Below are positions 864-63,206 of a stretch of DNA of 64,000 nt, piece by piece. The translations under genes and the position numbers were made by a program. How positions within the stretch are numbered: position 1 is the first letter of the stretch; each line of letters begins with the position of its first letter. The DNA is from an uncultured Acidimicrobiia bacterium (lineage in GTDB: Bacteria; Actinomycetota; Acidimicrobiia; Spongiisociales; JAENVV01): positions 26,403 through 90,402 of the forward strand of contig CBDTUI010000001.1 in NCBI GenBank assembly GCA_965363765.1. Direction: 5' to 3'. The notes beneath the pieces are model-generated. The model was not told the origin of the DNA, did no database searches, and saw nothing but the letters and a program-made list of their open reading frames with translations.

Positions 864-1886
864 GTGAAATCAGTAGCAATTCTCGGCGCCTCCGGATACG
901 GCGGAGGAGAGCTGATTCGTCTGGTCGATGCCCATCCGGAGATGACGGTTGCCTACCTCGGTGCCCATACCCAAGCCGGTAAACCTCTGGCAGAGGTGCA
1001 TCCCCATCTGGCGGACGGACAGCGGGTGCTCGAGCCGAACACAGCCGACCTGACCGGCATCGACCTCGTTTTTTTGGCGCTACCGCACGGCGCTTCTGCC
1101 GTGCTTGCAAGTGACCTGGCCGGGGCGGGCGTCAAAGTCGTTGACCTTGGTTCCGACTTCCGAATGGATACGACCGATCGGTACGAAGCCGCTTACGGGG
1201 CCCCTCATCCTCTGCCGAACGAATTATCCGACTGGACATATGGCCTCCCGGAACTGTTTCCGATTGGGGACTCAACGCGAGTGGCTTCCCCAGGCTGCTA
1301 TCCGACCGCCACCCTGCTCGGGGTTGCTCCGCTTCTCGCCGCTGGCGCCGTTTCGCCCGACGGGATTGTCATCAATGCCGTCTCGGGGGCGTCTGGGGCC
1401 GGACGATCGCTGAGCGAAGACCTCCTGTTTGGTGCGGTGGCCGATGGGGTTCGCGCCTACGGGGTTGCTAAGCACCGACACCGTCCCGAGATCGAGATGG
1501 CCCTCGAGGCATACACCGGACAGTCGTCGATTCGGGTGACATTCACCCCGCATCTGGTGCCGATGCAGCGGGGTATTCACGCCACGATCACCGCCCCCAC
1601 CGCCGGTGGGGTGACCGAGAATGACTTGCGCGGCGTGCTGGCCGACTTCGGGGAGGGCAAGCCGTTTTATGAGGTAGTGGATAGCCCCCCGCAGACTCGC
1701 TGGGCGGTCGGCTCAAATCGGGCGATCGTGTCGGTTTATCTTGATGAGCCAACCGGAAACGCGGTGATCCTCTCGGCAATCGACAACTTGCTCAAAGGCG
1801 CTGCCGGTCAAGCCATCCAGGCCGCCAACCTGATGTTCGGCTGGGATGAGGCCGCCGGGTTGCCCGTCTCAGGGTGGATGCCGTGA
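864..1886 (+). CDS. argC: N-acetyl-gamma-glutamyl-phosphate reductase
   Basis: GTG start 5 nt after GGAGGGGG. N-terminal GASGYGGGEL NAD-binding motif and active-site GCYPTA. 340 aa. Confidence 0.93.
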   Translation: MKSVAILGASGYGGGELIRLVDAHPEMTVAYLGAHTQAGKPLAEVHPHLADGQRVLEPNTADLTGIDLVFLALPHGASAVLASDLAGAGVKVVDLGSDFRMDTTDRYEAAYGAPHPLPNELSDWTYGLPELFPIGDSTRVASPGCYPTATLLGVAPLLAAGAVSPDGIVINAVSGASGAGRSLSEDLLFGAVADGVRAYGVAKHRHRPEIEMALEAYTGQSSIRVTFTPHLVPMQRGIHATITAPTAGGVTENDLRGVLADFGEGKPFYEVVDSPPQTRWAVGSNRAIVSVYLDEPTGNAVILSAIDNLLKGAAGQAIQAANLMFGWDEAAGLPVSGWMP

Positions 1887-3001
1887 TCCGATCTGCCGGC
1901 ATGGTCTCCGGCATCAAATCGTCAGGGGCGCCTGACCTGGCCCTGATTGATCTGGGTCGGCTGGTTTCCTGTGCTGCGGTTTTCACGGCTTCTCAGGCGG
2001 CCGCCGCTCCGGTTCTCATCAGTCGACCGATCGCCGGTCGGGGAGAGGCCAGGGCGGTGGTCATGAACTCGGGATGTGCCAATGCCGGGACAGGCGCCGT
2101 CGGCATGGACAACGCTCGGCGTATGCAACTGGCTGCCGCCACCAAGCTGGGATGCGATCCCGGGGCTGTGTTTGTTTGTTCCACGGGACCGATCGGCCCC
2201 CAACTCCCTATCGAGAAGATCGAAGCGGCGCTGGCCAGCATCGACGTGAGCGAGGATGGCTGGACCGGCGCTGCCGAAGCGATCCGAACCACTGACACCT
2301 TCGCCAAGGTTGCCGAGCGCACGTTTGGTCCTCTCAGGGTCCGTGGCATGGCCAAAGGGGCAGCCATGATCAGGCCAGATATGGCAACGATGCTGGCGGT
2401 AATCACCACCAATGCCGACCTGGGCTCAGAAGACCTTGATCGTGGCTTGCGCGACGCAGTCGGGCCGTCGTTCAACTCGCTCAACATCGACGGATGCCAG
2501 TCGACCAATGACACTGTCATCGCGTTCGCCACCAGCGAAGTGAATGCCGATCTCGACGCAGTGAATCGTCTGATTGCCGAGGTGTGCATGGAGTTGGCCG
2601 TAATGATCGCCAGCGACGGGGAGGAAACCAGCCGGGTCGTACGCGTCTCGGTGGTCGGGGCGGCCACCGACGGAACGGCTCGCCGACTCGGCCAAGCGAT
2701 GACCGACTCGGACCTGGTTCGGGCGTCCTTTTACGGTGGAGATCCGAACTGGGGACGGCTTCTGCAAGCGGCGGCCGTTTCAGGAGTCACAATCGACACC
2801 GAGGCGTTTGGGGTTGCCTATGAAGGGGTAGCGGTGGCGAGCGAGGGCTGCCAGGTGGAATATGATCCCGCTGCTATCCGGCCGCTGTTGAGAAACGACT
2901 TCACCGTCGACGTAAGAGTCGGGTGGGGTCCAGGATCAGCCACGATCATCACCACAGACCTCACCCCGGGATACGTCGAGTTCAACGGGGCACCGTCATG
3001 A
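1883..3001 (+). CDS. argJ: Bifunctional glutamate N-acetyltransferase / amino-acid acetyltransferase (ornithine acetyltransferase)
   Basis: Self-cleavage motif ATMLAVITTNA. GIK motif near the N-terminus. The GTG start at 1883 overlaps the argC stop (GTGA); an alternative start is GTG 1874. Confidence 0.9.
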   Translation: MIRSAGMVSGIKSSGAPDLALIDLGRLVSCAAVFTASQAAAAPVLISRPIAGRGEARAVVMNSGCANAGTGAVGMDNARRMQLAAATKLGCDPGAVFVCSTGPIGPQLPIEKIEAALASIDVSEDGWTGAAEAIRTTDTFAKVAERTFGPLRVRGMAKGAAMIRPDMATMLAVITTNADLGSEDLDRGLRDAVGPSFNSLNIDGCQSTNDTVIAFATSEVNADLDAVNRLIAEVCMELAVMIASDGEETSRVVRVSVVGAATDGTARRLGQAMTDSDLVRASFYGGDPNWGRLLQAAAVSGVTIDTEAFGVAYEGVAVASEGCQVEYDPAAIRPLLRNDFTVDVRVGWGPGSATIITTDLTPGYVEFNGAPS

Positions 3002-3894
3002 CCACCGGCCACTCATCACCGAATGCTCGCAAAAGCCGGATCGCCTCGACCATGGGCAAAGCCAAGATTCTGACCGAGGCGGCACCATACATCAAAGCTT
3101 TCTCAGGCAAGATCATGGTCATCAAGTACGGCGGGTCGGCCATGACCAGCGACGAACTCCGAGAAACGTTCGCCGGGGATGTCACACTGCTGAGCCTCGT
3201 CGGCATCAAGCCAGTGATTGTGCATGGGGGAGGGCCGCAAATCACGAGGGCGATGGGCCAATCGGGCGTTGAACCTAAGTGGGTGGACGGGCTGCGTGTA
3301 ACCGACGCCGAGACGATCCGAGTTGTGCAATCGGTACTCGCTGGTGAAGTCAACCCCGATATCGTCCGATTGCTGGCCGGTCATGGGGCGGTGGCGGCCG
3401 GGGTCACAGGTATCGATGGCGGGCTTTTCAAGGCGGTCCAGAAGGACGATCGGCTCGGGTTCGTAGGAGAGATCGAGTCGGTTGACCCGACTTTGGTCCG
3501 CGGCATGCTCAACCAAGGGATCGTTCCGGTAGTGGCACCCCTGGCGCGGGGCGCAGACGGCCACGCCTACAACCTGAACGCCGATACTGCGGCCGGGGCG
3601 TTGGCCGAGGCCCTGGGGGCAACCAAGCTGGTCTATCTCACTGACGTCGAGGGGTTGTATTCGGACCTCGGCGACGAAGACACCTTGCTATCGAGGGTAG
3701 GTATCACCGAGTTGGAGGCGATGATCGAATCTGGCTCGGCATCCGCTGGCATGGTGCCGAAGTTGCGGTCTTGTATCTCGGCAATGAAAGCGGGCGTACC
3801 TCAGGCTCACATTCTTGACGGACGGGTCCAGCACGCGCTCCTCCTGGAAGTGTTTACGCCAGAGGGCATCGGAACGATGGTCGAGCCTCGCTGA
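2998..3894 (+). CDS. argB: Acetylglutamate kinase
   Basis: MGKAKIL...KIMVIKYGGSAM amino-acid kinase N-terminus. ATG 2998 overlaps the argJ TGA (ATGA); an alternative start is ATG 3052. Confidence 0.9.
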   Translation: MTTGHSSPNARKSRIASTMGKAKILTEAAPYIKAFSGKIMVIKYGGSAMTSDELRETFAGDVTLLSLVGIKPVIVHGGGPQITRAMGQSGVEPKWVDGLRVTDAETIRVVQSVLAGEVNPDIVRLLAGHGAVAAGVTGIDGGLFKAVQKDDRLGFVGEIESVDPTLVRGMLNQGIVPVVAPLARGADGHAYNLNADTAAGALAEALGATKLVYLTDVEGLYSDLGDEDTLLSRVGITELEAMIESGSASAGMVPKLRSCISAMKAGVPQAHILDGRVQHALLLEVFTPEGIGTMVEPR

Positions 3895-4395: not shown

Positions 4396-5597
4396 TGAAA
4401 AAGATCGTTCTTGCGTATTCGGGAGGCCTCGATACGTCGGTGATTCTCACCTGGCTCAAAGAGGAATATGACGTCGAAGTGGTTGCGTACACCGCCGACG
4501 TTGGCCAGGGCGAAGAAGTTGAAGAAGCCAAGGTCAAAGCGATGGCGACCGGTGCGGTCGAAGCAATCGCCGAGGACCTGATCGAAGAGTTTGTCTCTGA
4601 CTACGTCTTTCCGGCACTGCGGGCCAACGCCATTTACGAAGGGCACTATCTGTTGGGCACTTCTTTGGCCCGTCCGGTGATCGCGAAAGGGTTAGTGCGG
4701 GCAGCCGAAGCCACCGGTGCCGATGGGATCGCCCACGGGGCAACCGGCAAGGGCAACGATCAGGTCCGGTTCGAAGTCTCCGCCTATGCGCTCAAGCCAG
4801 ACATCAAAGTCATTGCACCCTGGCGGGAATGGAAACTGCGGGGGAGGGCTGATTGCATCGCCTATGCAGAAGCGAGGGGAATCCCAATACCGGTCACCAA
4901 GGAAAAGCCTTATTCAATGGATGCCAACCTGCTGCACATTTCTTACGAGGGTGGCGTTCTCGAGGACCCGTGGGTGGGCCCTCCGAAAGACATGTTCAAA
5001 ATGACGGTCGATCCCGAGGACGCTCCTGACGAGCCGGAGATCGTGACAGTCACCTACGACCGCGGCGATCCGGTGGCTGTCAACGGGCAGGCCCTCGGGC
5101 CAGCGGCGCTCCTGGCCCGGCTCAATCAAATTGCTGGAGCGCATGGCGTGGGTCGAGTCGACATCGTCGAGAATCGCTTTGTCGGGATGAAGTCGCGCGG
5201 CGTGTACGAAACGCCTGGCGGGACGGTGCTGCACTACGCACACCGCGCGGTTGAATCGCTGACCCTGGACCGGGAGGTCATGCACTTGCGGGACAGTCTG
5301 ATCCCTCGGTATGCCGCCATGGTTTACAACGGCTTTTGGTTCTCGCCCGAACGCGAAGCGCTCCAATCGTTCGTCGATACCACCCAGGAGCGGGTGTCGG
5401 GGGAGGCGCGGCTGAGGCTCTATAAGGGCGGCGTTTACGTCGAGGGTCGCCGGTCCGACTACCGGCTCTACGACCAGGCCACGGTTACCTTTGAAGAAGA
5501 CGACGTCTACGACCAGGCCGACGCGGCCGGGTTCATTCGTCTCAACGCTTTGCGGTTGCGGCGCTCTGCCGAAGCTCGCCTCGGTCAAGGGGAGTAG
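4395..5597 (+). CDS. argG: Argininosuccinate synthase
   Basis: [18 protein letters not shown]-loop. 400 aa. The ATG overlaps the argR stop (TAATG). Confidence 0.95.
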
Positions 5598-6965
5598 ATG
5601 TCGACGCTGTGGGGCGGAGGTTTCGCCGAAGGTCCCGATGCGCTGCTGTGGGCCTATACGGTCGACACGGCAGACCGCCGGCTGATCTTCGACGACCTGC
5701 ATGGTTCGTGGGCCCACGTCGGGATGCTCGGCGAGCAGGGGATCATCAGTTCCGAAGAGGCCGCTCAGTTGCAGGGTGGCATTTTGGAGATCGTGGCCGA
5801 GGCGGAGGCGGGCGAGTTTGTTTTCCTGAATTCCGACGAAGATGTGCATTCGGCAACCGAACGGCGCCTGATCGAAAAGATCGGCGATGTGGGCCGCAAG
5901 GTGCACACGGGTCGATCCCGCAATGATCAGGTGGCTCTCGACCTTCGCCTCTATTTGGCCAGGGCGGGTCGTCAACAATTGCAGCACCTTGCCGCCATGG
6001 CCAGGGTCTTGGTTGACCAGGCCGAACGGGTGGGCGACCTCGTGGTCCCGTCATACACCCACCTCCAGCAAGCCCAGGCGGTGCCGTTGGCCCATCACCT
6101 GCTGGCGTATGCCGAAATGCTCCGGCGGGATGCCGAACGTATGCAAGCCGCCGTCTATCGGACCGAAGTGTCTCCGCTTGGAGCGAGTGCCTCGGGAGGA
6201 TCGAGCCTTCCTCTTGACCCTGCGGCCTCGGCCCGGCTTCTCGGTTGGAGTTGGCATTTCGCCAACTCGATGGACGCGGTTGGATCGCGCGACTTTGTCG
6301 CCGAGTACGTCTTTGTGTGCGCCCAGGCGATGGTCCACCTGTCGCGCCTCGCCGAAGAAGTCGTGCTGTGGGCGACTAGCGAATTCGGATGGGTGTCGTT
6401 CCCGGACACATTTACGACCGGATCGTCAGCGATGCCTCAGAAAAAGAACCCAGACGTTGCCGAACTCGTGCGGGGACGATCCGCAGGCGTGATCGGCGAT
6501 TTGTCGGCGATCATGGCCCTGCAAAAAGGGCTGCCACTCACGTACAACCGTGACCTGCAAGAAGATAAGCGGATCGCGTTCCACGCCGACGACGTGCTGG
6601 CCGGGTCGCTCCAGACGCTGGCAGCCATGCTGGCCACGGCCGTTTTCAACCCGCCACCCCCCAACCCGGCAGTCACCGCCCTCGACCTGGCCGAAGTGCT
6701 GGTCGGGCGGGGAGTGCCCTTCCGGACAGCACACGAGGCGATCGGTCAGCTACTCAAGAACCTGGCGGACGACGGGCGGACCCTGGCCGAAGCTACCGAT
6801 GCCGACCTTTCGACTGCCCATGATCAGTTCGAGGCCGAAGACGTCGCTCGGATTGATCCCGTTGCGTCGGTTCAACACCGGGTAACTCCGGGTGGCGGTT
6901 CGTTTCGTGAAGTTGCCCGGCAAATAACCCGCCTCCGGTCTTTGCTGGCAGACATCGGCAAGTAG
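5598..6965 (+). CDS. argH: Argininosuccinate lyase
   Basis: N-terminal LWGGGF. Fumarate-lyase signature GSSAMPQKKNPDVAE. 455 aa. Confidence 0.95.
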   Translation: MSTLWGGGFAEGPDALLWAYTVDTADRRLIFDDLHGSWAHVGMLGEQGIISSEEAAQLQGGILEIVAEAEAGEFVFLNSDEDVHSATERRLIEKIGDVGRKVHTGRSRNDQVALDLRLYLARAGRQQLQHLAAMARVLVDQAERVGDLVVPSYTHLQQAQAVPLAHHLLAYAEMLRRDAERMQAAVYRTEVSPLGASASGGSSLPLDPAASARLLGWSWHFANSMDAVGSRDFVAEYVFVCAQAMVHLSRLAEEVVLWATSEFGWVSFPDTFTTGSSAMPQKKNPDVAELVRGRSAGVIGDLSAIMALQKGLPLTYNRDLQEDKRIAFHADDVLAGSLQTLAAMLATAVFNPPPPNPAVTALDLAEVLVGRGVPFRTAHEAIGQLLKNLADDGRTLAEATDADLSTAHDQFEAEDVARIDPVASVQHRVTPGGGSFREVARQITRLRSLLADIGK

Positions 6966-7030: not shown

Positions 7031-7384
7031 GTGTCTTTGGACTGGTTACCGTGGTTGTTGTCGCTTGGGTTTGCGTTCCTCGGCTGGGCAATCGGTCGAT
7101 CAACGAACCGTTGGTTCGCTGCGAGCCGCGAAGCTACCCGTCGGATGGTCCTCGTCAAAGGGTTGAATTCGGCTCTTATTGCGGTGGCGTACTGGCTTAT
7201 CGTGTGGCAGGTCCTCAAACGCTTCGATCTGTTTGATCTCACCGCTGGGGTCGTCGTCGGACTGATGATGGTCCCGTTCGCCGCCCTTGGCTACATGTGG
7301 GCAGTCCGCCAACACGCCCAAAGTCTGTTTGGCCGGCGCCTCCCCCGCCGCCTCCGCCCCCGAATGTTCATACGACGTAGCTAG
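7031..7384 (+). CDS. Hypothetical small membrane protein (2-3 TM helices, Arg-rich tail)
   Basis: ORF with a GTG start, hydrophobic segments and a basic C-terminus. No recognisable family. Confidence 0.35.
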   Translation: MSLDWLPWLLSLGFAFLGWAIGRSTNRWFAASREATRRMVLVKGLNSALIAVAYWLIVWQVLKRFDLFDLTAGVVVGLMMVPFAALGYMWAVRQHAQSLFGRRLPRRLRPRMFIRRS

Positions 7385-7388
7385 GGGT

Positions 7389-8306
7389 TCAGATCAATGC
7401 GATGGTGGCAGCGAGGGTGAGGGCGCTGGCGACCGTTGATACGAGCACGGTGGTGGTCACGAAGTCTGGTTCGAGGTCGTGTTCGATCGCAATTAGCGCC
7501 GCAAAAACGGCGGCGGGCATGGCCGATTGCAGGATGGTGACGCCACCCGCAGTGCCGCCCAGCCCGATGAAGGCGGCAGCCAGGGCGGCAGCCGCCGGGG
7601 CGATCAGCAGGCGAAGGCCCGATGCCACCCATACTTCTTTTGCGAAGCGTGGTCGCTGCATGCTCGACAACTGAACCCCGAGCGTTACGAGCATGACGCC
7701 GATCATGGCGTCGGCCAGCAGGCCAATTGCCCGGTCGGCGAAGACAGGGAGCGTTAGATCGCCGGCGTTAAAGACGATTGCTAAGGGAAGGACCGCCACG
7801 GTGGGGGTGGTGAGTGCCTTGATGATCGCTTTGGACGGCGAGGCGGTCCGCCAGGTGGCTGCCGTCACCCCGATCATGAAGGCGGCGAAGTTGATGATGA
7901 GGAATGACACTCCGGCGAGTGGCAAGGCCTCTTCGCCGAACGCAAAGGAGACGATCGGTATGCCGAAATTGCCGACGTTCCCGTAAACAGCAACCAAAAC
8001 GACGGCCGCCGTCAGCGAGTAGCCCCACTTGAACAAGCGGCCGGCCGCCAGGCCGAGTAAGGCCACAACCGCGGTGGTTACGGTGATCACTATCGCCATC
8101 TGGGCCACCACGCCGGTCTCGATGTCGGCATCGCGGAGCAGATCAAAAAAGAACGCGGGGGCCAGAATGTAGTAGGCCACCTTGGCGAGTGGAGCGGGAT
8201 CTAAGCCCATCCGCCGACCAACGATGAGGCCGATCGTTGCTAATCCGAAGACGGGCAGCAGGATATCGATGAAGATTGCAGTGAGGTCGGTCACGTGGGC
8301 GGCCAT
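7389..8306 (-). CDS. AEC (auxin efflux carrier / malate permease-like) family transporter
   Basis: Polytopic membrane protein with the N-terminus MAAHVTDLTAIFIDILLPVFGLATIGLIVGRRMG typical of the AEC family. The start was moved to the internal ATG at 8306; the track ORF starts at 8570. Confidence 0.7.
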   Translation of the reverse strand: MAAHVTDLTAIFIDILLPVFGLATIGLIVGRRMGLDPAPLAKVAYYILAPAFFFDLLRDADIETGVVAQMAIVITVTTAVVALLGLAAGRLFKWGYSLTAAVVLVAVYGNVGNFGIPIVSFAFGEEALPLAGVSFLIINFAAFMIGVTAATWRTASPSKAIIKALTTPTVAVLPLAIVFNAGDLTLPVFADRAIGLLADAMIGVMLVTLGVQLSSMQRPRFAKEVWVASGLRLLIAPAAAALAAAFIGLGGTAGGVTILQSAMPAAVFAALIAIEHDLEPDFVTTTVLVSTVASALTLAATIALI

Positions 8307-8799: not shown

Positions 8800-8908
8800 G
8801 CGACTGCGACCTTCCATCCGCACCTGCATCGCGAATCGCATCATTCGGGCTGCGACGGCGGTTCTGCTACCGATAAGGTGGCGCTCATGTATTTGACCCG
8901 AGGCGCTC

Positions 8909-10081
8909 GTGCTGCAAATCCCTGACGCCGAACGACGTAGGCGGTTAGCCCATCGCCACGGCCTTGTCGCGGGATTTGAGGCGGTTCCGTCGGTCGCCGA
9001 CGCCCTGGTCGGTCTCCATTCGAGTGATCCTGCCAGCGTCTACTTGTCGGTGTGGGCGCGTATGGATGGCGTCAAAATCGAGGACATCGAATCGGCTCTG
9101 TATGACACGGGAGAGCTGGTCCGGATGTGGGCGATGCGCCGGACCATGTTTGTCGTGCCCCCCGAACTCGGGCAGGTCATGTATCCCGCCGCCACCCGCG
9201 ACGTGGTGACTTCCGAGTGGCGCAAGCTGCGGCAATGGGTGGTCGCCAATCATGATTTTCCAGATCCCGACGCCTGGATGGAGCAGATCGCAGCAGGAGC
9301 CATCGAATTCCTATCGAGGATCGGGAGAAGTACCACTCGTGAACTGAAAGCGCAGGTCGATGGTCTGGATACGGCGCTCGTGGTCCAGCAAGGCACGCGA
9401 GCTCCCGTGACGATGAGCATGGCGAGTCGGCTGCTCATGCTCCTCGCGATGGACGGGCGGGTTGCCAAAGGACGGCCGGCGGGAACCTGGCGATCTTCCC
9501 AATACGAGTGGTTGTCGCTCGGTGAATGGCCAGGCGATTGGATCACGAACGGCACCCACGACGATCCCGAAGCCGAACTGCTCGCAAGGTGGCTGAGCGC
9601 ATACGGTCCGGGGACGTTTCAAGACCTCAAGTGGTGGACGGGTTGGACGGTTGCCAAGACCCGGCGGGCGCTGTCGGCAACCGGGGCCGTCGAGGTGGAA
9701 CTCGATGATGGCACCGGGTTCGTCCTTGGCGACGACCTGAACGCGACACCCGATCCGGGCGATTGGGTGGCCCTGCTACCCGGCCTCGACCCGAGCGTCA
9801 TGGGATGGAAGCAGCGAGACTGGTTCCTCGGTGACCTGGCCGGTCGACTCTTCGACCGAAACGGCAACGCTGGCCCGACCGTGTGGGCCAACGGGGAGAT
9901 AGTCGGTGGGTGGGCTCAGCGGCCAGATGGGACGATCGCGGTGGGTTTGCTCAAAGATGTACCGACCGCTGCCCGAAAAGCCATCGACCGTGAGGCTGAT
10001 GACCTGGCCGATTGGATTGGTCCGGTCGGGCTCCGGTTCCGCTTCCCCAGTCCCTACGAGAAGGAACTACGCGACAGCTAG
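8909..10081 (+). CDS. Winged-helix DNA-binding domain protein of the YcaQ/AlkZ-like (DUF1006) crosslink-repair glycosylase family
   Basis: 390 aa. The N-terminal architecture (LVGLHSSDPASVYLSVWAR...LYDTGELVRMWAMRRTMFVV) resembles the actinobacterial AlkZ/YcaQ family. Confidence 0.55.
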   Translation: MLQIPDAERRRRLAHRHGLVAGFEAVPSVADALVGLHSSDPASVYLSVWARMDGVKIEDIESALYDTGELVRMWAMRRTMFVVPPELGQVMYPAATRDVVTSEWRKLRQWVVANHDFPDPDAWMEQIAAGAIEFLSRIGRSTTRELKAQVDGLDTALVVQQGTRAPVTMSMASRLLMLLAMDGRVAKGRPAGTWRSSQYEWLSLGEWPGDWITNGTHDDPEAELLARWLSAYGPGTFQDLKWWTGWTVAKTRRALSATGAVEVELDDGTGFVLGDDLNATPDPGDWVALLPGLDPSVMGWKQRDWFLGDLAGRLFDRNGNAGPTVWANGEIVGGWAQRPDGTIAVGLLKDVPTAARKAIDREADDLADWIGPVGLRFRFPSPYEKELRDS

Positions 10082-10104
10082 GGTGAGATTCTGGACCCTG
10101 GAGG

Positions 10105-10968
10105 ATGATGTACGAGAAAGCCTTCAAGCAAATTCACGGCAAACAGATGGCCTATATCGACATCGGCGAAGGTGATCCAATCGTGTTTCTGCACGGCAAT
10201 CCAACCTCGTCGTTCCTATGGCGATCCGTCATGGCCGAACTCGAGGGACACGGACGCCTCATCGCCCCCGACCTCATCGGAATGGGCGATTCCGACAAAC
10301 TCGACGATCCGGGTCCAGATTCGTATACGTTTGTTGAGCACCGGCGTTTTCTTGACGAACTCCTCGACCAGCTAGATCTCGGTGACGCAGTGACGCTCGT
10401 CATCCACGACTGGGGTTCGGGTCTCGGCTTCGACTGGGCCAACCGCCACCGGACTCGGGTCAAGGCGATTGCCTACATGGAAGCCATCGTCAAGCCAGTC
10501 ACATGGGAGGAGTGGCCCGAGTCGGCTCGCCAATTCTTCCAGGGGCTTCGGTCAGAAGCCGGAGAATCGATGGTCCTCGTAAAGAACATGTTCGTTGAGA
10601 GGGTGCTGCCCAGCTCGATCCTCCGACCGCTCACCGACGAAGAGATGACCGAGTACCGAAGGCCCTACCTTGCGGCCGGGGAGTCACGTCGCCCCACGCT
10701 GACCTGGCCCCGACAGATTCCCATTGCAGGAACGCCTTCCGACGTGCACGACATCGTGGCGGCATATTCCCAGTGGTTGGCCGACTCGGATGTACCCAAG
10801 TACTTCTTCAACGCTGATCCCGGATCGATTCTCATCGGAGACCAGCGCGAGTTTTGTCGGAGTTGGCCAAATCAGCAGGAGATGACCGTGGCGGGCCTGC
10901 ACTTCATCCAAGAGGATTCCGGCGCCGAGATCGGGCGCGAGCTAGCCAGATGGCTTCCCAGGCTGTGA
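10105..10968 (+). CDS. dhaA: Haloalkane dehalogenase (HLD-II, DhaA/DmbA-like alpha/beta hydrolase)
   Basis: [27 protein letters not shown], nucleophile elbow [10 protein letters not shown]-terminal [21 protein letters not shown]. Colinear with Rhodococcus DhaA and Mycobacterium DmbA. Confidence 0.88.
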
Positions 10969-10990
10969 ACCGCGTTGGGAGCGGCGCTGT

Positions 10991-11617
10991 TTAGGTCTCA
11001 AACTCGATCACGTCGGGGTCTTCGTAAAGAGCCTGCATAAGCGCTCGATGGGCAGTCTGAGTCCCGATCACGTCGAAGTGGGCGATTAGCCGCTCGCGAT
11101 CCTTCGCTTCCTTGAAGGAGCGCACGCGTAGTCCAAGTTCCACAATCCGGTCGCGGAGAGCGTCGAGCTTCGGATGGCCGGCGGTTGTGACGATGCGATA
11201 GATCATATGGCCCGACCGTCGATCGATCATGACTTCCGCTTTGGGCAGAGCGACGAGCACAACCATCATGACGGCAAACGTGGCCATGCTGGCCAAGTAT
11301 TCGCCCGCTCCGATTCCCATGCCCAGTGCCGCTGCTACCCAGATCGTGGCGGCGGTCGTGATGCCGGAGACATTGCCGTTGTGCTTGAAGATGACCCCGC
11401 CACCGAGAAACCCGACGCCCGCCACTATTCCGGCCGCTACCCGGCCCGGGTCGTTGGTGCTGCCGGCTAAATCCTCTGAGATCATCGTGAAGAGGGTGGC
11501 GCCCAAGGTGATGAGCAGGATCGTGCGAAATCCGGCTGCTTTGTCGCGGTATTCCCGCTCGGCGCCGACGATTCCGCCGACGAGCACGGCCAGGGTGAGT
11601 TTGAGGGCGAGTTCCAT
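10991..11617 (-). CDS. mgtC: MgtC/SapB family membrane protein
   Basis: N-terminus MELALKLTLAVLVGGIVGAEREYRDKAAGFRT and a soluble C-terminal domain. Confidence 0.85.
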   Translation of the reverse strand: MELALKLTLAVLVGGIVGAEREYRDKAAGFRTILLITLGATLFTMISEDLAGSTNDPGRVAAGIVAGVGFLGGGVIFKHNGNVSGITTAATIWVAAALGMGIGAGEYLASMATFAVMMVVLVALPKAEVMIDRRSGHMIYRIVTTAGHPKLDALRDRIVELGLRVRSFKEAKDRERLIAHFDVIGTQTAHRALMQALYEDPDVIEFET

Positions 11618-11677
11618 CGGTTGAATGTATCAGCTGGTCGCAGGTGCAGCCAAGCCTGGGCTAAACCCTGACACGAA

Positions 11678-12133
11678 TTAGCCCTTGCGGATCTGTTCTT
11701 CGAGGAAGGCGATCCGTTGGCGAATCCACACCACTGCGCTGTGCGGATCGGCTGAACCCTGCTCGTCGGCGATGGCGTCGATGGCGTTCAGCGTGCCCCT
11801 GACGGAACCCTCGCCGGCCATAGCCAGTTCTATGCCCTGAGTTGGAAACCGGGCCAGATGGGCTCGGAGCCCCTCGAGTTCGCGTTTCATGTCGGCCACG
11901 GAGAGAGGAGCATGCGATCGGAGTATGTCACGAAGGCCGTCGCGTTCCTCCGTCATGGCCGCAAGGGACGCTATATCTCCGGGGTTGGAGCGGGCCTTCT
12001 CTATTTCGCCGGCAAGCTCGCCGAGGCGGCTCAGAATGTCGTCTCGTTTCAATGTTTCTCCCTTGGGATGCCCCGATGGTAGGTGAAGGCCGTCCCGCGC
12101 GTCGGGCCATCCGCCAATTCTGCCCACCGCCAC
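11678..12133 (-). CDS. Hypothetical protein (coiled-coil/acidic). The start is uncertain.
   Basis: ORF with coding-like composition. The track ORF start at 12154 lies inside a palindromic repeat, so I propose GTG 12133 instead. No family recognised. Confidence 0.3.
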   Translation of the reverse strand: MAVGRIGGWPDARDGLHLPSGHPKGETLKRDDILSRLGELAGEIEKARSNPGDIASLAAMTEERDGLRDILRSHAPLSVADMKRELEGLRAHLARFPTQGIELAMAGEGSVRGTLNAIDAIADEQGSADPHSAVVWIRQRIAFLEEQIRKG

Positions 12134-12137
12134 CCGA

Positions 12138-12210
12138 TCTTGGGGCTCCAGCACCCATTATCGGGCGCAGGAACCCAGGGTTCAACCCTGGGTTCGGGTA
12201 GGGGGGGTAG
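12138..12210. repeat. Solo copy (inverted orientation) of the ~60-65 bp palindromic repeat family that is also present as a tandem array at 55759-55947
   Basis: TCTTGGGGCTCCAGCACCCATTATCGGGCGCAGGAACCCAGGGTTCAACCCTGGGTTC followed by a G-rich tail. This is the reverse complement of the unit at 55881-55947. It contains the near-palindrome GAACCCAGGGTTC/GAACCCTGGGTTC. Confidence 0.8.
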
Positions 12211-12220
12211 CCTGGCTCGC

Positions 12221-13642
12221 ATGGATCAGTTTGCACAACGTAGAGCTCAGTTCGCCGAAGCGATTGGAGACGGAGTCGCCATCATTCCGGCGGGACGTGA
12301 CACCACCCGCAACGACGACGTCGACCACGAGTTTCGCCAGGACTCGACGTTCTATTTCCTCACCGGGTTCTCGGAACCCGACGCCGTCGCGATCCTTCAT
12401 CCGTCCCACCCCAGCGCTTCGTACACGCTGTTTGTGCGGCCCCGCGACCGCGAGATGGAAATCTGGAACGGATACCGGGCCGGCACCGAGGGAGCCAAGA
12501 AGGAATACGGAGCCGACGAGGCATATCCGATTGGGGAACTGTCAACCAAACTGAACGACCACCTGATTGGTACCGACACGATCCTCTACCGAACAGGGGG
12601 CCCGCTCGACGAGATGGTTTTGGGGATGATGCAATCGCTTCGGCCGCTCGCCGAACGATACGGACGAACCATCCCCACCCGGTTGGTCGACCCTTCGCCG
12701 ACGCTCGACGAGATGCGACTGCGCAAGTCAGACCCAGAACTGGCTCACCTGCGTAGGGCCTGTGACATATCGGTTCTCGGACACGAAGCGGCCATGCGGT
12801 TCGCCAAGCCGGGAGTGTACGAGTACCAAATCCAGGCAGCCATGGAACACGTCTTTCGCCAGGAGGGGTCACCCCGCAATGGCTATCCATCGATCGTGGC
12901 CTCTGGGCCGAATGCCTGCATCCTGCATTACACCGAGAACGACCGCCAGGTCGAAGATGGTGACCTGGTGCTCATCGACGCAGCGGCCGAATCGGGTCAC
13001 TTCTCTTCGGATATCACCCGAACCTTCCCGGCCAATGGACGGTTTACCAAACCCCAGCGAGCCGTATACGACGTCGTGCTTGGCGCCCATCGGGCCTCGA
13101 TCGGCGACGCAAAAGCGGGCAACACGCATCGCGACATGCACGAAACCGCCAAGAAAGCCATCACGGAAGGACTCATCGACCTCGGCCTACTGCCGCAAGG
13201 TCTCGAAGACTCGCTGAGTATGCACCACTATCGCGAGTACTTCATGCACGGAACCGGTCACTGGCTTGGCATGGACGTGCACGATGCCGGATCGGTTCAG
13301 ATTGGCAATGACTCACGGACCCTTGAGGTCGGAATGTCATTCACGGTCGAGCCGGGCATTTACATTGCGCCAGATCAAGAGGCCGTCGACTTCGTGTTGA
13401 TGGAGTACGACTCATCGGCGCGCTACGAACGGCGTTATCGCATCGGCGCCGAGGCTGCCAAAAAGCTTGAAGAAGAAGAGATGAAGGACGCCCCCCGGGT
13501 TAGCCATGAGATCCCTGCCGAATTTCGGGGAATTGGGGTCCGCATCGAGGACGATATCGCTATCACAGCAGCTGGCCCCGAGAACTTGACCGCCGCTCTA
13601 CCGGTCGATCCCGATGAGGTCGAAGCGATCTGTCAGAACTGA
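12221..13642 (+). CDS. pepP: Xaa-Pro aminopeptidase (M24B family)
   Basis: An N-terminal creatinase-like domain plus the pita-bread domain with HGTGHWLGMDVHD. The start is set to ATG 12221 downstream of the repeat; the track ORF starts at 12083 inside the repeat. Confidence 0.85.
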   Translation: MDQFAQRRAQFAEAIGDGVAIIPAGRDTTRNDDVDHEFRQDSTFYFLTGFSEPDAVAILHPSHPSASYTLFVRPRDREMEIWNGYRAGTEGAKKEYGADEAYPIGELSTKLNDHLIGTDTILYRTGGPLDEMVLGMMQSLRPLAERYGRTIPTRLVDPSPTLDEMRLRKSDPELAHLRRACDISVLGHEAAMRFAKPGVYEYQIQAAMEHVFRQEGSPRNGYPSIVASGPNACILHYTENDRQVEDGDLVLIDAAAESGHFSSDITRTFPANGRFTKPQRAVYDVVLGAHRASIGDAKAGNTHRDMHETAKKAITEGLIDLGLLPQGLEDSLSMHHYREYFMHGTGHWLGMDVHDAGSVQIGNDSRTLEVGMSFTVEPGIYIAPDQEAVDFVLMEYDSSARYERRYRIGAEAAKKLEEEEMKDAPRVSHEIPAEFRGIGVRIEDDIAITAAGPENLTAALPVDPDEVEAICQN

Positions 13643-14268
13643 TCGTTGAGGCTCAGCTCGCCTGCCGCCGCCCTGCGCAAGGCGGTCCTAAGCGTGCTGT
13701 CCGCAAACAACGCCTGGTCGATCGGTAACGGGACTGACATTCTGAGGAGATCGTCCTCGAGCTCGACTTGGGCGCCCGCCTTCGACAGGCTGTCTACAAC
13801 GGCCCGGTTGTCGGGAAGAACGTAGGCAGTGAAAACTGCAACGCCGTTGGTCATGGCGACTTCGGTGAGTTCTTGCAGTAGTCGGGTACCGATTCCGCGA
13901 CCGTGGTGGGAATCGATGACGATGAGGGCCGCCTCGGCAGCCGTTGGATCTTGGGTATCGCGAACATAGCGGGCTACGCCGACCCCGACGCCGTTGTCCA
14001 ATACCGCCACGAGCGCCACATGGTCCTGCCCGTCGACGTCGACGAGGTAGTCGAGTTCGGCGTCTGTGAGTCGGTCGACGCCGCGCATAAACCGAAAGAA
14101 GCGGCTCTGTTGACTCGTCTCTTCGAACCCGGCGACCAATTGGGCGCGATCCTCAGGCAGGATCGGGCGGATGGTGATGGTCTCGCCATCGGGGAGTTGG
14201 GTTTGCACGGCGCCATTCTCGCACGAACCGGTAAGCTCATTGTCATGGCACGACCAAGCTTCAAACAT
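13633..14268 (-). CDS. GNAT family N-acetyltransferase
   Basis: Acetyl-CoA-binding motif LLQELTEVA...GRGIGTRL (Q/RxxGxG/A). 211 aa. Confidence 0.75.
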   Translation of the reverse strand: MFEAWSCHDNELTGSCENGAVQTQLPDGETITIRPILPEDRAQLVAGFEETSQQSRFFRFMRGVDRLTDAELDYLVDVDGQDHVALVAVLDNGVGVGVARYVRDTQDPTAAEAALIVIDSHHGRGIGTRLLQELTEVAMTNGVAVFTAYVLPDNRAVVDSLSKAGAQVELEDDLLRMSVPLPIDQALFADSTLRTALRRAAAGELSLNDQF

Positions 14269-14468
14269 CTCGCCGGTAACTGGGCGAACTCAGAGCTACC
14301 CCTAGCTCAAAAGATTCGACTGACTATCAAGAACAACGCAATCAAGATCAAGAACGGATCGAACTGCTGCGGAAATCACGGCGAACCCGGTTGTTGAGTG
14401 GGTCCTGACGCCTCCGGTTCGGATGGCCATGCACATACCCACGACGACGATCATGGTCATGGCCACAA

Positions 14469-14993
14469 TTAGTTGACGATGGAATAACGCACTAGCTCGG
14501 CCCCGTCGTTGGTCCACCACTGTTTCTCGAGCGCCATACCAACCCGTTCCGCTACCCCCCGCGAGGCCTCGTTTTCGGCCAGAGCGTTGGCAAAAATCGT
14601 CCGTACCCCGACCACGTCGAACGCGTACGAGATAATGGTGTCGACCGCTTCAGAGGCGTAGCCCTGTCGTTGGTACTTCCGGGCGATGGTGTATCCGACG
14701 TCGGCGGTTGAAGGGTCGGAAGCACGTACGTGGAGGCCCACGTCGCCAACTGTCACGCCGGTTTCCTTATCGACGACAGCGAACTGGTGCCACTCGCCGG
14801 GCGTTCCTGGCGGGATATTCGCCAACTCGTCGAAGAAGTCGTGAGCTTCGTCCTCGGTGTATGGCATGTCCCACCCCTGGAGACGGGCGATCTCGGGGTC
14901 GTTGCGATATTCGAGAAACAGGGCCAGGTCCCGTTCGTCGAAGGTTCGGAGGCCGATCCGATCGGTCTCTGCCAGCCAGTTGCTACTGCCCAA
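14469..14993 (-). CDS. GNAT family N-acetyltransferase (RimJ/RimL-like). The start is uncertain.
   Basis: ETDRIGLRTFDERDLALFLEYRNDPE...YQRQGYASEAV typical of RimL-type acetyltransferases. The likely start is TTG near 14993; the track ORF extends to 15131 and overlaps uppS. Confidence 0.65.
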   Translation of the reverse strand: MGSSNWLAETDRIGLRTFDERDLALFLEYRNDPEIARLQGWDMPYTEDEAHDFFDELANIPPGTPGEWHQFAVVDKETGVTVGDVGLHVRASDPSTADVGYTIARKYQRQGYASEAVDTIISYAFDVVGVRTIFANALAENEASRGVAERVGMALEKQWWTNDGAELVRYSIVN

Positions 14994-51955: not shown

Positions 51956-52768
51956 ATGAAGCTCGGTGAAATGGGAACGAAGGTACGTGATTCGATCGTC
52001 GGAACCGTCAAAGGCGCCGGCACGGTGGCCGACACAACGGTCAACGAGATCAAGGACACGACAGTCAAGGTGTTGAAGGGCGCTGGTGGCATTATCCACG
52101 GCGGAACCGACGCAGTTGGCGATGTTGTATCAGGCGCATTGAGCGCTGTCGATGATATCGGCGGCGGTATCCTCAAGGTTGCCAAGGGTGTTGTGCTCGG
52201 TGTAGTTGGCTCGGTTGGCGAAGTAGCGACTGTTACCGCCGGGACGATCAGCGACATTGTTCGCGCAGCGATCAAGGGTACGTCTGAGATTGGTGGCGAC
52301 CTAACGGCTGCCGCCAGTGGCACGGCCCAGGGTGTCATGGGTGGCGCCAAGGAAGTAGGCATGTCGGCTACCGACGCAGCCTTCACCCTCGCCAAGTCCG
52401 TTGTGACGGGTACGACTGAGGTCGGTGGCGACCTCATCGGCGCCGTGACCGGCACCGTTCAGGGTGCCGTCAAGGGCGCATCCGAAACGGGTGGCGATGT
52501 ACTCGGTGCCATCTCGAACACCGCTCGCGGCGCAGTCCGCGGTGTAGGTGAAGTTGGCGGCGACATCGCCGAAGTAACCCGCACGACCATTTCGGCTGCC
52601 ATTGGTGCTGCCAAAGAGGTCGGTCTTGGAGTCGAGGATGCTGCTTCGGCAGCCGCCACCGGCGCCATGGAAGCGGCTGGCAACATTGGCGAGTCCGCAG
52701 TGAACGCGGTCACCGGTGTTATCGGTACCACCGTCGACGGTGTGAAGGTTGCTGTCAAAGGCCAGTAA
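51956..52768 (+). CDS. 22-residue tandem-repeat protein (Gly/Ala/Val/Thr-rich, apolipoprotein/LEA-like 11/22-mer periodicity). Unknown function.
   Basis: Strong RBS GAAGGAGG. No signal peptide. The motif E(V/I/T)GGD recurs every 22 aa (for example EVGGDLIGAVTGTVQGAVKGASETGGDVLGAISNTARGAVRGVGEVGGDIAEV). Followed by a strong terminator. Confidence 0.7.
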   Translation: MKLGEMGTKVRDSIVGTVKGAGTVADTTVNEIKDTTVKVLKGAGGIIHGGTDAVGDVVSGALSAVDDIGGGILKVAKGVVLGVVGSVGEVATVTAGTISDIVRAAIKGTSEIGGDLTAAASGTAQGVMGGAKEVGMSATDAAFTLAKSVVTGTTEVGGDLIGAVTGTVQGAVKGASETGGDVLGAISNTARGAVRGVGEVGGDIAEVTRTTISAAIGAAKEVGLGVEDAASAAATGAMEAAGNIGESAVNAVTGVIGTTVDGVKVAVKGQ

Positions 52769-54646: not shown

Positions 54647-55159
54647 CTAACCGTTGGTGACGTTGAAGCGGAGGTTGCCGGAAGAATCCGAAACGATGGC
54701 CTCAAAACTACATTTGGCGCCAGAGCTGGTCATCGTCTTCTCGGCGATCGGTTCGGTCGCATCCTCGGAGTCGAAGACCTTGAACACCACAGGCAGGCCG
54801 CCGTCAACGGTGAGATTCTGGCCTCGGTCGGTTCTGACAGGCCCGATGGTCGCCTTCGAGGTCGTGGCTGTCAGCCAGTAGCCGTCGGAACCAGCGATGA
54901 CCGTGATGTCACAACTGGCGTGCCTGGTTGAGATGAGCCCGGCTTCATCGGTGTTGCCAGTCATCTGGATTAGGCCGAAACCAAGCATGACGACGACGGC
55001 CGCGCCTGCGGCGGCCATCACCAGATTGTTGAATCGGTTTCGGCGAGGCTGAAAAGGGACGACTTTGGTTTGCACAAATTTGTGGTCTGGGACTTCGATG
55101 AGGCGCGCTTTGGCGGCCAGATGGCCGCGTAGGCGCTCCTCAAAGTCGGATTCGTTCAC
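54647..55159 (-). CDS. Putative anti-sigma factor (single-pass membrane protein co-translated with the ECF sigma factor)
   Basis: The start overlaps the sigma stop (ATGA). Domain order is ~55 aa cytoplasmic N-terminus, one TM helix (LVMAAAGAAVVVMLGFGLI), then a ~95 aa extracytoplasmic domain. No canonical zinc anti-sigma domain. Confidence 0.5.
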   Translation of the reverse strand: MNESDFEERLRGHLAAKARLIEVPDHKFVQTKVVPFQPRRNRFNNLVMAAAGAAVVVMLGFGLIQMTGNTDEAGLISTRHASCDITVIAGSDGYWLTATTSKATIGPVRTDRGQNLTVDGGLPVVFKVFDSEDATEPIAEKTMTSSGAKCSFEAIVSDSSGNLRFNVTNG

Positions 55160-55707
55160 GTTGCTTCTCCAAGAGATTTCTGGAGTGCGGCGACACCCCG
55201 ATGAATTCGGCTTTTAACGGTCCCCTTGGGAATCCCGAGCGAGTCGGAGATTTCCTCCATGGACCAATCCATGTAGTACCGCAAGACGACCGGGGCCCGA
55301 TACTTTTCGGGTAGTTCTGCCAGGGCCGCGTCGAGCTTTGGCTCGAACTGCGGATCTTCAATATGGGGTTTGTCCGTGACGTAGATCGATGGCAGTTCTC
55401 GTTTTGACCGACGAAGTTTGGTGCGTGCCCAGTTCATGCCAACCCGGTAAACCCAGCCTCCCGGGTTGTCATAGGTCTGCACGTCTGACCAGCGCTGGTA
55501 GGCGCGGGTCATGGCTTCATCGGCCGCCTCGATGCCCAACTCCCGGTTACCAAGAACGATCACCAGGGTGCGCACCAAATGAGGACGTTTCGCGTTGTAG
55601 AACTCTTCAAAAGAGTTCAGCGAGATGCCCTGTTCGACTGTCACGGTTCCCTCCATACGGGGAGCAGACGCATCGTTTGGCTTGTTGGTTCCCAGATTCC
55701 GTTCCAT
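55156..55707 (-). CDS. ECF subfamily RNA polymerase sigma-70 factor
   Basis: Sigma70_r2 (FEEFYNAKRPHLVRTL...YQRW). Sigma70_r4 (LPEKYRAPVVLRYYMDWSMEEISDSLGIPKGTVKSRIHRG). The start is set to ATG 55707; the track ORF runs into the repeat array. Confidence 0.85.
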   Translation of the reverse strand: MERNLGTNKPNDASAPRMEGTVTVEQGISLNSFEEFYNAKRPHLVRTLVIVLGNRELGIEAADEAMTRAYQRWSDVQTYDNPGGWVYRVGMNWARTKLRRSKRELPSIYVTDKPHIEDPQFEPKLDAALAELPEKYRAPVVLRYYMDWSMEEISDSLGIPKGTVKSRIHRGVAALQKSLGEAT

Positions 55708-55758: not shown

Positions 55759-55947
55759 GAACCCAGGGTTCAACCCAGGGTTCCAGCGCCCGAATACGGG
55801 TGCTGAGGCCCCAAGAACAACCCAGGGTTGAACCCAGGGTTCCTACCCCCGTTTTTCGGGGGGTTACAGCCCCGAGAACAACCCTGGGTTGGTGCGTGAA
55901 CCCTGGGTTCTAGCGCCCGGGTATGGGTGCTGGAGCCCCAAGAACAG
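55759..55947. repeat. Tandem array of three copies of a 61-67 bp palindrome-containing repeat (same family as the solo copy at 12138-12210)
   Basis: Copy 1 is 55759-55819, copy 2 is 55820-55880 and copy 3 is 55881-55947. Each starts with the near-palindromes (G)AACCCAGGGTT(C/G)AACCCAGGGTTC and ends CCCCAAGAACA. Copy 2 has a diverged middle (CCCCCGTTTTTCGGGGGG hairpin). Confidence 0.85.
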
Positions 55948-56013
55948 CGCGCGGGTGACAAAAGGTGGGCTGCGGTGGGCTGGGTCGGGACGACGCAGCT
56001 ACCCTTCGGCCTG

Positions 56014-58203: not shown

Positions 58204-58582
58204 AGTCCTGGCGGTAACCCGAATCGTGGCCGCGGTCGGGGCTCTTGATGGGGCGGCCTACCCGCCTGACGCAGTCATCATGCGAACCGCGCCGGACGAT
58301 GCCATGGTGATTGGAGGCGGAGCGGTAGAAGTCGAGGATCCGCACGCCATCATTCAGCAGGACAGCGGCTGGACGGGTGTTTGGGTCAACGCCGAACCAG
58401 CCGATGCATTCTTACGCACCAGCTGCGCATGGGCAGTTCCTGACCGGCCCAGCTTCGCCCAAGGGATGATCGCCGGACTGGCTATCAAACTGTGGCAGGC
58501 CAAAGATCGGACGCTGTTCGTATTTCCTACCGCACTCACCGCAGATTTTGTCGAGCGGACTCCGCCGGAGTGGTCGGCATGA
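58196..58582 (+). CDS. soxG: Putative sarcosine oxidase gamma subunit (short). The start is uncertain.
   Basis: Small ORF between soxA and soxB in the alternate frame, with a coding-like sequence (AYPPDAVIMRTAPDDAMVIGGG...). A GTG at 58196 overlaps the soxA stop. Confidence 0.45.
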   Translation: MLEVLAVTRIVAAVGALDGAAYPPDAVIMRTAPDDAMVIGGGAVEVEDPHAIIQQDSGWTGVWVNAEPADAFLRTSCAWAVPDRPSFAQGMIAGLAIKLWQAKDRTLFVFPTALTADFVERTPPEWSA

Positions 58583-59790: not shown

Positions 59791-60026
59791 TGAGTATCCG
59801 GATCATCTGCGACCATTGTGGGACCCGACCCCTTGAGGAGTACGTCTACGGCGAAATTTTCGACGTACCGGCTTCGATAGCTGATCCGCTAGAACGGAAC
59901 CTGGACCGAGCCTTCAACCACACCAACATCGAAGGCCCGGTGATCGAAGCGTGGTTCCATCTCTATGGTTGCCGGCGATGGATTACGGTCAATCGAGACA
60001 CAGCTACCGATAGGGTTATCGAATGA
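59790..60026 (+). CDS. soxD: Sarcosine oxidase delta subunit
   Basis: 78 aa. MSIRIICDHCGTRPLEEYVYGE Cys-containing N-terminus typical of SoxD. The ATG overlaps the soxB stop. Confidence 0.75.
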   Translation: MSIRIICDHCGTRPLEEYVYGEIFDVPASIADPLERNLDRAFNHTNIEGPVIEAWFHLYGCRRWITVNRDTATDRVIE

Positions 60027-60036
60027 CCTACCCGAA

Positions 60037-62954: not shown

Positions 62955-63169
62955 GACTTCAGCTCAGCCGAACGACCTCTCGCTGTCAAGGGCCGAACGT
63001 CATCGGGGTTCGTTGCGGTGGGTGTGCCCGAGCCCTCTTTGAGGCTCATTGTCCGTACAAGCGCCTCTGTTTGGGAAATGTTTTCCCGATACAACCAACT
63101 ACGCCGACTACGAGATGTACTATGGGTACCTAATCGAGTCCGGAACTCCCCACTCCCTCCGGACTCGAA

Positions 63170-63206
63170 AAGCGGAACCCCGGCTTGCCGGGGTTCCGCT
63201 TATTTC
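63170..63206. terminator. GC-rich hairpin, a candidate terminator downstream of the Gmad2-like gene
   Basis: 14-bp stem AAGCGGAACCCCGG/CCGGGGTTCCGCTT with loop CTTG, followed by ATTTCTGGGTT on the plus strand. The strand assignment is ambiguous. Confidence 0.55.

Follow-up and report, generated by a model that had tools for sequence, protein, structure and literature searches.

The intergenic region upstream of pepP

A palindromic element is located upstream of pepP in the window, that is, the whole 64,000-nt stretch of DNA that was analysed (the same sequence is also found in ENA assembly ERZ25083857). The element was recovered at 12138–12210, letter for letter as quoted in an earlier note and, as described there, is placed between a hypothetical gene on the minus strand and the start of pepP on the plus strand (Table 1). 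pepP, which carries the Pfam domains AMP_N and Peptidase_M24, starts at the ATG at 12221. The start of the hypothetical gene is most likely the TTG at 12052, behind the conserved sequence AAGGGAGA; this sequence and the block CACCTACCATCG... upstream of the gene are both conserved in three genomes. In the automatic gene call the hypothetical gene was extended to ~12133, a few bases from the tail of the element.

Table 1. Positions of the features at the pepP locus and in the repeat cluster at 55.7–55.9 kb of the window. DP, double palindrome.
Feature	Position	Strand	Remarks
Hypothetical gene, 124 aa, no Pfam match	11678..12052	-	5' end on the tail side of the element
C-rich flank CTGCCCACCGCCACCCGA	12118..12135	+	Largely complementary to the G-rich flank across the element
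Solo copy, full	12136..12194	-	DP 12194–12172, hairpin 12171–12148, tail 12147–12136
Solo tail AGCCCCAAGATC	12136..12147	-	Family consensus RGCCCnnGAAY
Solo hairpin module CCTGCGCCCG-ATAA-TGGGTGCTGG	12148..12171	-	Imperfect 10-bp palindrome; GCCC/GGGC core nearly invariant
Solo DP AACCCAGGGTT-G-AACCCTGGGTT	12172..12194	-	Two 11-nt palindromes, 12 nt apart; best-conserved module of the family
G-rich flank CGGGTAGGGGGGGTAG	12195..12210	+	'Poly-G tail' of the earlier note; spacer upstream of the predicted pepP -10
TAGCCT, -10-like hexamer	12208..12213	+	7 nt ahead of the ATG of pepP; arranged as in leaderless promoters, function predicted
Cluster copy 1	55760..55818	+	DP 55760–55782, hairpin, tail; 79.2 bits; adjoins the ECF sigma gene; conserved in LH_M20 and Ww197
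Cluster copy 2, variant hairpin CCTACCCCCG-TTTTT-CGGGGGGT	55819..55879	+	Similar variant at L037 6856–6902
Cluster copy 3	55880..55945	+	8-nt insert GGTGCGTG between its 11-mers; 56.9 bits

The perfect hairpin described for the element was confirmed, GAACCCAGGGTT (12171–12182) being the exact reverse complement of AACCCTGGGTTC (12184–12195). Upon folding, each of the two strands formed an 11-bp stem with a 3-nt loop together with a second hairpin. The energies obtained for the two strands as DNA were -22.7 and -23.3 kcal/mol (z -3.6 and -4.2), and z was -2.5 and -4.0 when the strands were folded as RNA. The sequence GAACCCWGGGTT was matched 18 times in the window at no more than one mismatch, as compared to 0.61 matches expected, and 16 of these matches fall at two loci, namely 12.17–12.20 kb and 55.76–55.91 kb. 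A covariance model (R1) built from a seed alignment of 30 copies assigned the element a score of 83.2 bits (E 1.6e-24) and identified exactly four copies in the 64-kb window, this one and three in the cluster at 55.7–55.9 kb. The proposal that the element is a solo, inverted member of a family clustered at 55.7–55.9 kb was thereby borne out. Its description as the reverse complement of cluster copy 3 holds only roughly (79% identity over 67 nt), as the best full-length partner is cluster copy 1 in inverted orientation (83% over 70 nt); when only the 36 nt of the hairpin and tail are compared, copy 3 is marginally the closest with 6 mismatches vs 7.

The distance of TAGCCT from the pepP start codon was similar in other genomes. 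The same hexamer is found 6–7 nt before the pepP ATG at the loci L035, L054 and L055; the more distant orthologs L056 and L060 have TAGCAT and TAACCT with comparable spacing, and in L058 the hexamer is located farther upstream. This suggests that TAGCCT is a leaderless-type -10 of pepP, in which case the pepP mRNA would be leaderless. The DP of the solo element overlaps the -35 position of this predicted promoter, and this position of the DP in the window results from a length difference of ~50 nt from the metagenome-assembled genome LH_M20. As to the regulatory structure also suggested in the earlier note, the element may at most modulate the predicted pepP promoter. The suggestion that the hairpin terminates transcription of the minus-strand gene was not upheld, given that the 5' end and not the 3' end of that gene faces the element and that a T-run is lacking. 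A terminator scan of 11950–12350 returned no terminator-like site. As both neighbours start beside the element, in what is a divergent promoter region, termination of either one is geometrically impossible.

A formal G3N3G3N2G3N1G3 motif, GGGTTCGGGTAGGGGGGG, spans 12190–12207 and includes the GGG of the DP itself. Only three formal G4 motifs, defined by four tracts of at least three G and loops of 1–7 nt, are present in the 64 kb, two of which lie beside element loci, the second (55967–55989) at 20 nt from the cluster. A scan of 336 kb placed 9 of 20 G4 motifs within 60 nt of an element, where ~0.6 would be expected on the basis of length only, an expectation that ignores the difference between intergenic and coding DNA. 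The motifs close to elements are mostly found on the DP side with the GGG of the DP as first tract; apart from the two in the window, they occur at L009, L016, L018, L024, L035, L036 and L044. The DP-side flank is, within 25 nt and read in element orientation, 40% C vs 24% G, and often holds degenerate AACCC or CACCC half-units. The poly-G tail thus reflects a family-wide tendency of this flank and not a conserved sequence. The two flanks of the solo copy gave a duplex of -32.3 kcal/mol, the strongest of 35 copies. A long-range stem or terminal inverted repeat formed from the flanks was considered and rejected, as the family-wide signal is weak (p ~0.017) and mostly an effect of composition.

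Architecture of the repeat family

The repeat unit is ~60 nt long and consists of the DP, AACCCWGGGTT-S-AACCCWGGGTT, followed by a 24-nt GC-rich palindrome with the consensus CCAGYGCCCG-ATAT-CGGGCRCTGG and then by the tail RGCCCnnGAAY, which reads ACGTT in a subset of copies; a C-rich extension adjoins the unit on the DP side. The 30 copies of the seed alignment come from different genomes and align almost without gaps. The central W positions of the two 11-mers are uncorrelated (AA 12, TT 14, AT 11, TA 12) and the S position is C or G, occasionally A or T, which means that the two 11-mers need not pair with each other at these positions. The remaining 20 DP positions are essentially invariant, also in second copies that were found by the model outside the selection imposed by the search pattern. 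As the loci were fetched by the exact DP pattern, the retrieval itself accounts for part of the DP conservation seen in orthologs.

Pairing in the hairpin module amounts to 78% of cells, with modest covariation, the observed score being reached in 20 of 500 shuffles of the larger set and 176 of 500 shuffles of the first set. G.T and A.C mismatches are equally frequent in the stem (35 each), and neither strand is therefore favoured as a folded single strand. The outer stem CCAGYG.../...CRCTGG is replaced by CCTACC.../...GGTAGG in two copies, at window 55833–55879 and at L037 6856–6902. The full stem is retained in the L037 variant via four compensated positions with one G bulged, whereas in the window variant the GC core alone is still paired. 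No variation was seen in the GCCC and the G of the tail in the seed alignment, and little across hairpin types, where GCCC is occasionally ACCC. The DP was almost never found in the absence of a hairpin-like module, and a hairpin and tail were never found in the absence of a DP.

The number of 11-mer units is one (L052, L041), two, which is the norm, or three (L017), and extra units are found at a distance of 8 nt in window copy 3, L002, L031 and L024. A symmetrical two-armed element of ~113 nt, in which tail, hairpin, DP, hairpin and tail follow one another around a single shared DP, is found at L004 1380–1492 and resembles an inverted dimer of the REPIN style. At L055 5545–5592, in a more distant relative (PepP 68%), GAACCCTGGGT, the hairpin ACGTCGG-AAA-CCGACGT and GGACCCTGGGTT follow one another; the site is possibly related, at a distance, to the repeat family and would have 11-mers flanking a hairpin on both sides.

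Distribution and genomic context

A scan with the exact pattern, using one genome per species, returned 53 loci of which ~40 came from eight Acidimicrobiia MAGs. The model identified ~55 full or partial copies in 40 Acidimicrobiia loci (287 kb) of the eight MAGs. Pattern matches in Segatella copri, Verrucomicrobia and a Lachnospiraceae genome were rejected as they comprise only the 23-nt hairpin, a terminator located beside a tRNA or before a T-run, and the same holds for matches in IMG/VR, where the search found no full element on viral contigs. A search of the whole window against Rfam gave 0 matches at the gathering threshold, and under permissive settings sub-threshold miRNA-type and generic hairpins. 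No tRNA or tmRNA was found, and a literature search for the motif retrieved unrelated primers only. A weak model match at 63134–63200 of the window was discarded as an ordinary terminator-like hairpin. On the minus strand this site reads GCGGAACCCCGG-CAAG-CCGGGGTTCCGC and then TTTT, followed by a second hairpin TCGAGTCCGGA...TCCGGACTCGA; T-tailed terminators, unlike the repeat, thus exist in the window genome.

Every copy is intergenic. Of the neighbouring gene pairs, 21 face a copy with both 5' ends and 10 with both 3' ends, and the co-directional arrangements number 9 + 9 for the two orientations, meaning that 43% of copies are located in divergent promoter regions and 10 of 49 between convergent 3' ends, some of which fill the entire gap. 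No strand preference relative to the neighbouring genes was observed, and many copies lie 5–30 nt past a stop codon. The neighbouring genes include pepP and genes for an ECF sigma factor, a sarcosine-oxidase-alpha-like protein, a luciferase-like monooxygenase, a molybdopterin oxidoreductase, a DsbA-like protein, LigB, a TrpD-like protein and a SARP regulator. Their functions are diverse, and no protein family recurs beside the copies beyond the clustering of orthologs.

No transposase or other cognate protein of the repeat family was identified at the loci examined. In the REP/REPIN-RAYT system, a single-copy gene for an IS200/IS605-like tyrosine transposase is flanked by repeats. A gene with the domains AbiEi_4 and DUF559 (Vsr-like nuclease) is tightly bracketed by two inverted copies, tails inward, at L018 4024–5123 and L024 2048–3147, where it fills the gap between an SCP2-like ORF and the ORF at 5136–6464, the C-terminal part of which is malate-dehydrogenase-like (both readings by eye). 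The layout looks like that of a REPtron, and a YbaK-like gene (by eye) in L036/L037 is bracketed in the same way. Neither of the two bracketed genes (L018/L024 and L036) is RAYT-like. The AbiEi_4 and DUF559 gene was considered as the cognate enzyme and set aside, as it was found at one orthologous locus only and the unrelated YbaK-like gene is bracketed in a like manner.

The cluster at the ECF sigma factor gene

Three copies are arranged head-to-tail on the plus strand at 55760–55945. The copy nearest the sigma gene is common to the window, LH_M20 (L044) and Ww197 (L049), and the array at this locus amounts to 3, ~1.4 and 1 copies, respectively. The ECF sigma gene is located at 55159–55656, and GGGAACC-N16-GCGTCT is found just upstream of it, at window 55666–55693 on the minus strand. 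The -35 GGGAACC is identical in the window, L044 and L049, and the corresponding -10 reads GCGTCT, GCGTCT and GAGTCT; this is probably the autoregulated promoter of the sigma gene itself.

The pepP copy in related genomes

The locus L035 of LH_M20 is collinear with window 8907–14772 at 73% DNA identity, PepP being 83% identical, and its copy of the element matches that of the window in site and orientation. The DPs of the two genomes are identical at 20 of 20 constrained positions and differ at all three free positions (W, S and W), and the hairpins and tails are 75% and 83% identical, respectively. In L035 the DP is farther from the predicted -10 of pepP by ~50 nt, and the G7 run is missing. 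The idea that the G-run could form a G-quadruplex is weak: a formal motif is present in the window, and the run is replaced in this ortholog, where a different G4 motif is found on the same side of the element.

At L054 (PepP 77%) the order of the hypothetical gene and pepP is the same and both conserved promoter blocks are kept, but a model search of its 6.4 kb detected neither the element nor a remnant of it, including upstream of pepP. None of 26 more distant pepP loci had an element upstream of the gene, and one weak, unrelated site was obtained among all 27 metagenomic loci. Absence from L054 despite the same gene order indicates that the element is lineage-restricted and not universal; the pepP copy was gained, or is still kept, only on the branch that gave rise to the window genome and LH_M20. 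With site and orientation shared by a genome of 83% PepP identity, the insertion is old and not recent, and the copy predates the split from LH_M20. The outcome that the earlier note had named as refuting its view, ancestral sequence in all relatives with no target duplications or variability, was thus found in part: the copy is shared with LH_M20 and a target duplication is lacking, but the copy is missing in L054.

Repeat dynamics

Among three genomes that are 88–91% identical, every comparable element-bearing site was occupied in all three, and no new dispersed insertion was observed, only tandem changes, so that mobility is at most putative. Differences in array or unit number were seen in L020 vs L038 and L026, L002 vs L031, L029 vs L048, and L017 vs L013 and L016. 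Synteny breaks and indels on the kb scale fall exactly at repeat copies. In Ww197 (L049) 4.2 kb are missing beside the cluster (window 55816–60078); L008 holds one copy (7324–7396) and L052 two direct copies 1.8 kb apart (1564–3445); and L003 and L042 diverge completely past the DP. These breaks would fit recombination between copies, or else hot spots of insertion.

The LH_M20 copy at L044 differs from its L020 paralogs at 2–3 of 36 nt and from its orthologs at 7–8 of 36. That the paralogs are closer than the orthologs points to within-genome copying or gene conversion; in the window the same contrast is marginal (6–7 vs 8). No target-site duplication was detected, as cognate flanks share 2.3 nt on average vs 2.6 nt for non-cognate flanks, and terminal inverted repeats are absent, the DP end and the tail end not being mutually inverted.

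Discussion

The repeats were compared to known classes of interspersed repeats. Members of the REP GTAG/CGTC super-families are extragenic GC-rich stem-loops of 20–40 bp, present in many copies and with an unpaired GTAG/CGTC terminating the stem on one side; most dimers of classical REPs are head-to-head or tail-to-tail and head-to-tail ones are rare, and this actinobacterial class is not among the phyla that the survey lists (PMC3733652). The stem of the present family, a 24-nt palindrome with a GCCCG/CGGGC core, is of this kind and all copies are intergenic. GTAN precedes the stem in only ~11 of 42 copies, and most copies instead carry CCAG, which pairs with CTGG; the solo copy has CCTG before the stem. 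Head-to-tail arrays are found in the window, L020, L038 and L002, and the copy at L004 is the one two-armed form. With the tag missing in most copies and with head-to-tail arrays, the family is not a member of the GTAG/CGTC REPs as defined in PMC3733652. In a wider sense it resembles the REP/BIME elements of Proteobacteria, which are mobilised by RAYT transposases, in that it consists of short GC-rich intergenic palindromes in tens of copies or more per genome, in that solo, clustered and two-armed forms of variable array number occur without target duplication, and in that positions are partly conserved between species and paralogs homogenised within a genome. It differs from them by the addition of an invariant double 11-mer module and a tail conserved in sequence.

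BOX elements of Streptococcus pneumoniae are built as boxA-boxB(n)-boxC and have no known transposase of their own. The present family is likewise modular, prone to form secondary structure and intergenic, with one short module, here one, two or three 11-mers, varying in number; sequence and host are unrelated, however, and BOX elements are larger. MITEs such as the Correia elements of Neisseria and ERIC are small non-coding dispersed repeats that may land in promoters and carry promoter-like hexamers. The family is alike in being small and dispersed, but is not a MITE because it has neither terminal inverted repeats nor a target-site duplication. Mycobacterial MIRUs share with it an actinobacterial host, intergenic location and head-to-tail arrays with a copy number that varies between lineages; they are not built from palindromic hairpins, however, and many of them overlap the stop and start codons of genes in an operon.

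Taken with moderate confidence, the flagged stretch is a repeat copy in inverted orientation, belonging to a lineage-specific family of modular, palindromic intergenic repeats that is REP/BIME- or BOX-like and occurs in a clade of uncultured Acidimicrobiia. The family is new to the resources searched, yet its kind is familiar. A trans-acting protein that binds or processes DNA, either transposase-like or a host factor, probably contacts the invariant AACCCWGGGTT units, and the copies would be kept alike by this constraint, by gene conversion or by both. Present change would mostly consist of tandem gain and loss and of recombination between copies, and not of fresh transposition. Conservation of position and of the 11-mers would also fit binding sites maintained by selection.

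Such sites might form a dispersed cis-regulatory element kept by selection, in which the paired 11-nt palindromes are operators of a dimeric regulator or parts of a two-way ECF-type promoter. Invariance of the 11-mers next to free W and S positions, conservation of position between genomes ~73% identical in DNA and the large share of copies in divergent promoter regions are all in favour of this. GGAAC-N17-GTT is the shape of SigH/SigE-type ECF promoters, and the block CTGG-AACCC...GGGTT-CCAG has this shape; in the solo copy GGAAC (12170–12174) and GTT (12192–12194) are directed toward pepP, and cluster copy 1 is directed toward the ECF sigma gene. A sigma-70-like TTGAAC-17-GATAAT, with 0.0 expected, is in addition found inside the solo copy toward the hypothetical gene. 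The N17 spacing is, however, automatic for any 23-nt palindrome starting with AAC, the CGTAC subfamily reads CGAAC and not GGAAC, and neither promoter-like motif is conserved in the L035 ortholog, where TTGAAC/GATAAT is lost (S=C, loop GAAAAC) and the distance to pepP differs by ~50 nt. An operator or promoter would moreover hardly account for the near-constant company of hairpin and tail, for the copies between convergent 3' ends or for the lack of functional coherence among neighbouring genes, and we therefore consider this explanation unlikely.

The family could also be a non-selfish network of protein-recognised architectural or regulatory sites, with the 11-mer pairs, which can also be read as the two-way GGAAC-N17-GTT promoter of ECF type, kept by selection in the same intergenic places across genus-level divergence and the hairpin and tail acting as an insulator or processing module. 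If true, Acidimicrobiia would have a dispersed cis-element of a new kind; this is regarded here as distinctly improbable.

REP-like hairpins can stabilise mRNA (PMC3733652), and the repeat could be a structured RNA acting on one strand, be it a terminator, a stabilising hairpin at the 3' end of an mRNA, a small RNA or a structure in a leader. Each strand can form two stable hairpins, many copies follow closely on stop codons and some stem variants are compensated. This reading has a very low probability nonetheless, since both neighbours of the solo copy start beside it and neither a T-run nor a terminator match is found there, orientation to co-directional genes is random (9 vs 9), G.T and A.C mismatches are balanced, covariation is weak and no Rfam match was obtained.

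The earlier note pictured an insertion. A recently arrived classical MITE with terminal inverted repeats and a target-site duplication, mobilised by an IS transposase, is largely refuted and retains a slim chance at best. The element is indeed dispersed in multiple copies, absent from L054 and, in the solo copy, flanked by mutually complementary sequences, but the site is occupied in the same orientation in LH_M20, a target duplication is lacking, the DP and tail ends are not inverted copies of each other and the full element is absent from viral contigs. A functional G-quadruplex switch formed by the G-run in the pepP promoter is the least credible of the alternatives, for although the motif at 12190–12207 exists and such motifs gather beside elements in the window and across the 336 kb, the run is replaced in L035 and absent in L054, a motif accompanies only ~8 of ~55 copies, the enrichment arises in part from the GGG of the element together with the C/G-skewed flank, and the run would be untranscribed if pepP is leaderless.

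Read as a REP/BIME- or BOX-like family, the repeats extend the known interspersed-repeat families by an undescribed one, found in an actinobacterial class that is uncultured and lies outside the REP survey (PMC3733652), with an unusual build of invariant double palindrome, variable hairpin and conserved tail. The family explains intergenic palindromes that are overrun by gene callers, as in the automatic start of the hypothetical gene near the tail of the element. The repeats furthermore mark sites of rearrangement and of copy-number change, which is useful in strain typing, and the defined 11-mer may be used as bait for the protein that recognises it. With respect to pepP and to termination the finding changes nothing.

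A different repeat was picked up by the repeat scan at 52276–52479 of the window. It is a 72-nt direct repeat (family D5) with a spacing of 132 nt and 71% identity, and may be a repeated protein segment.
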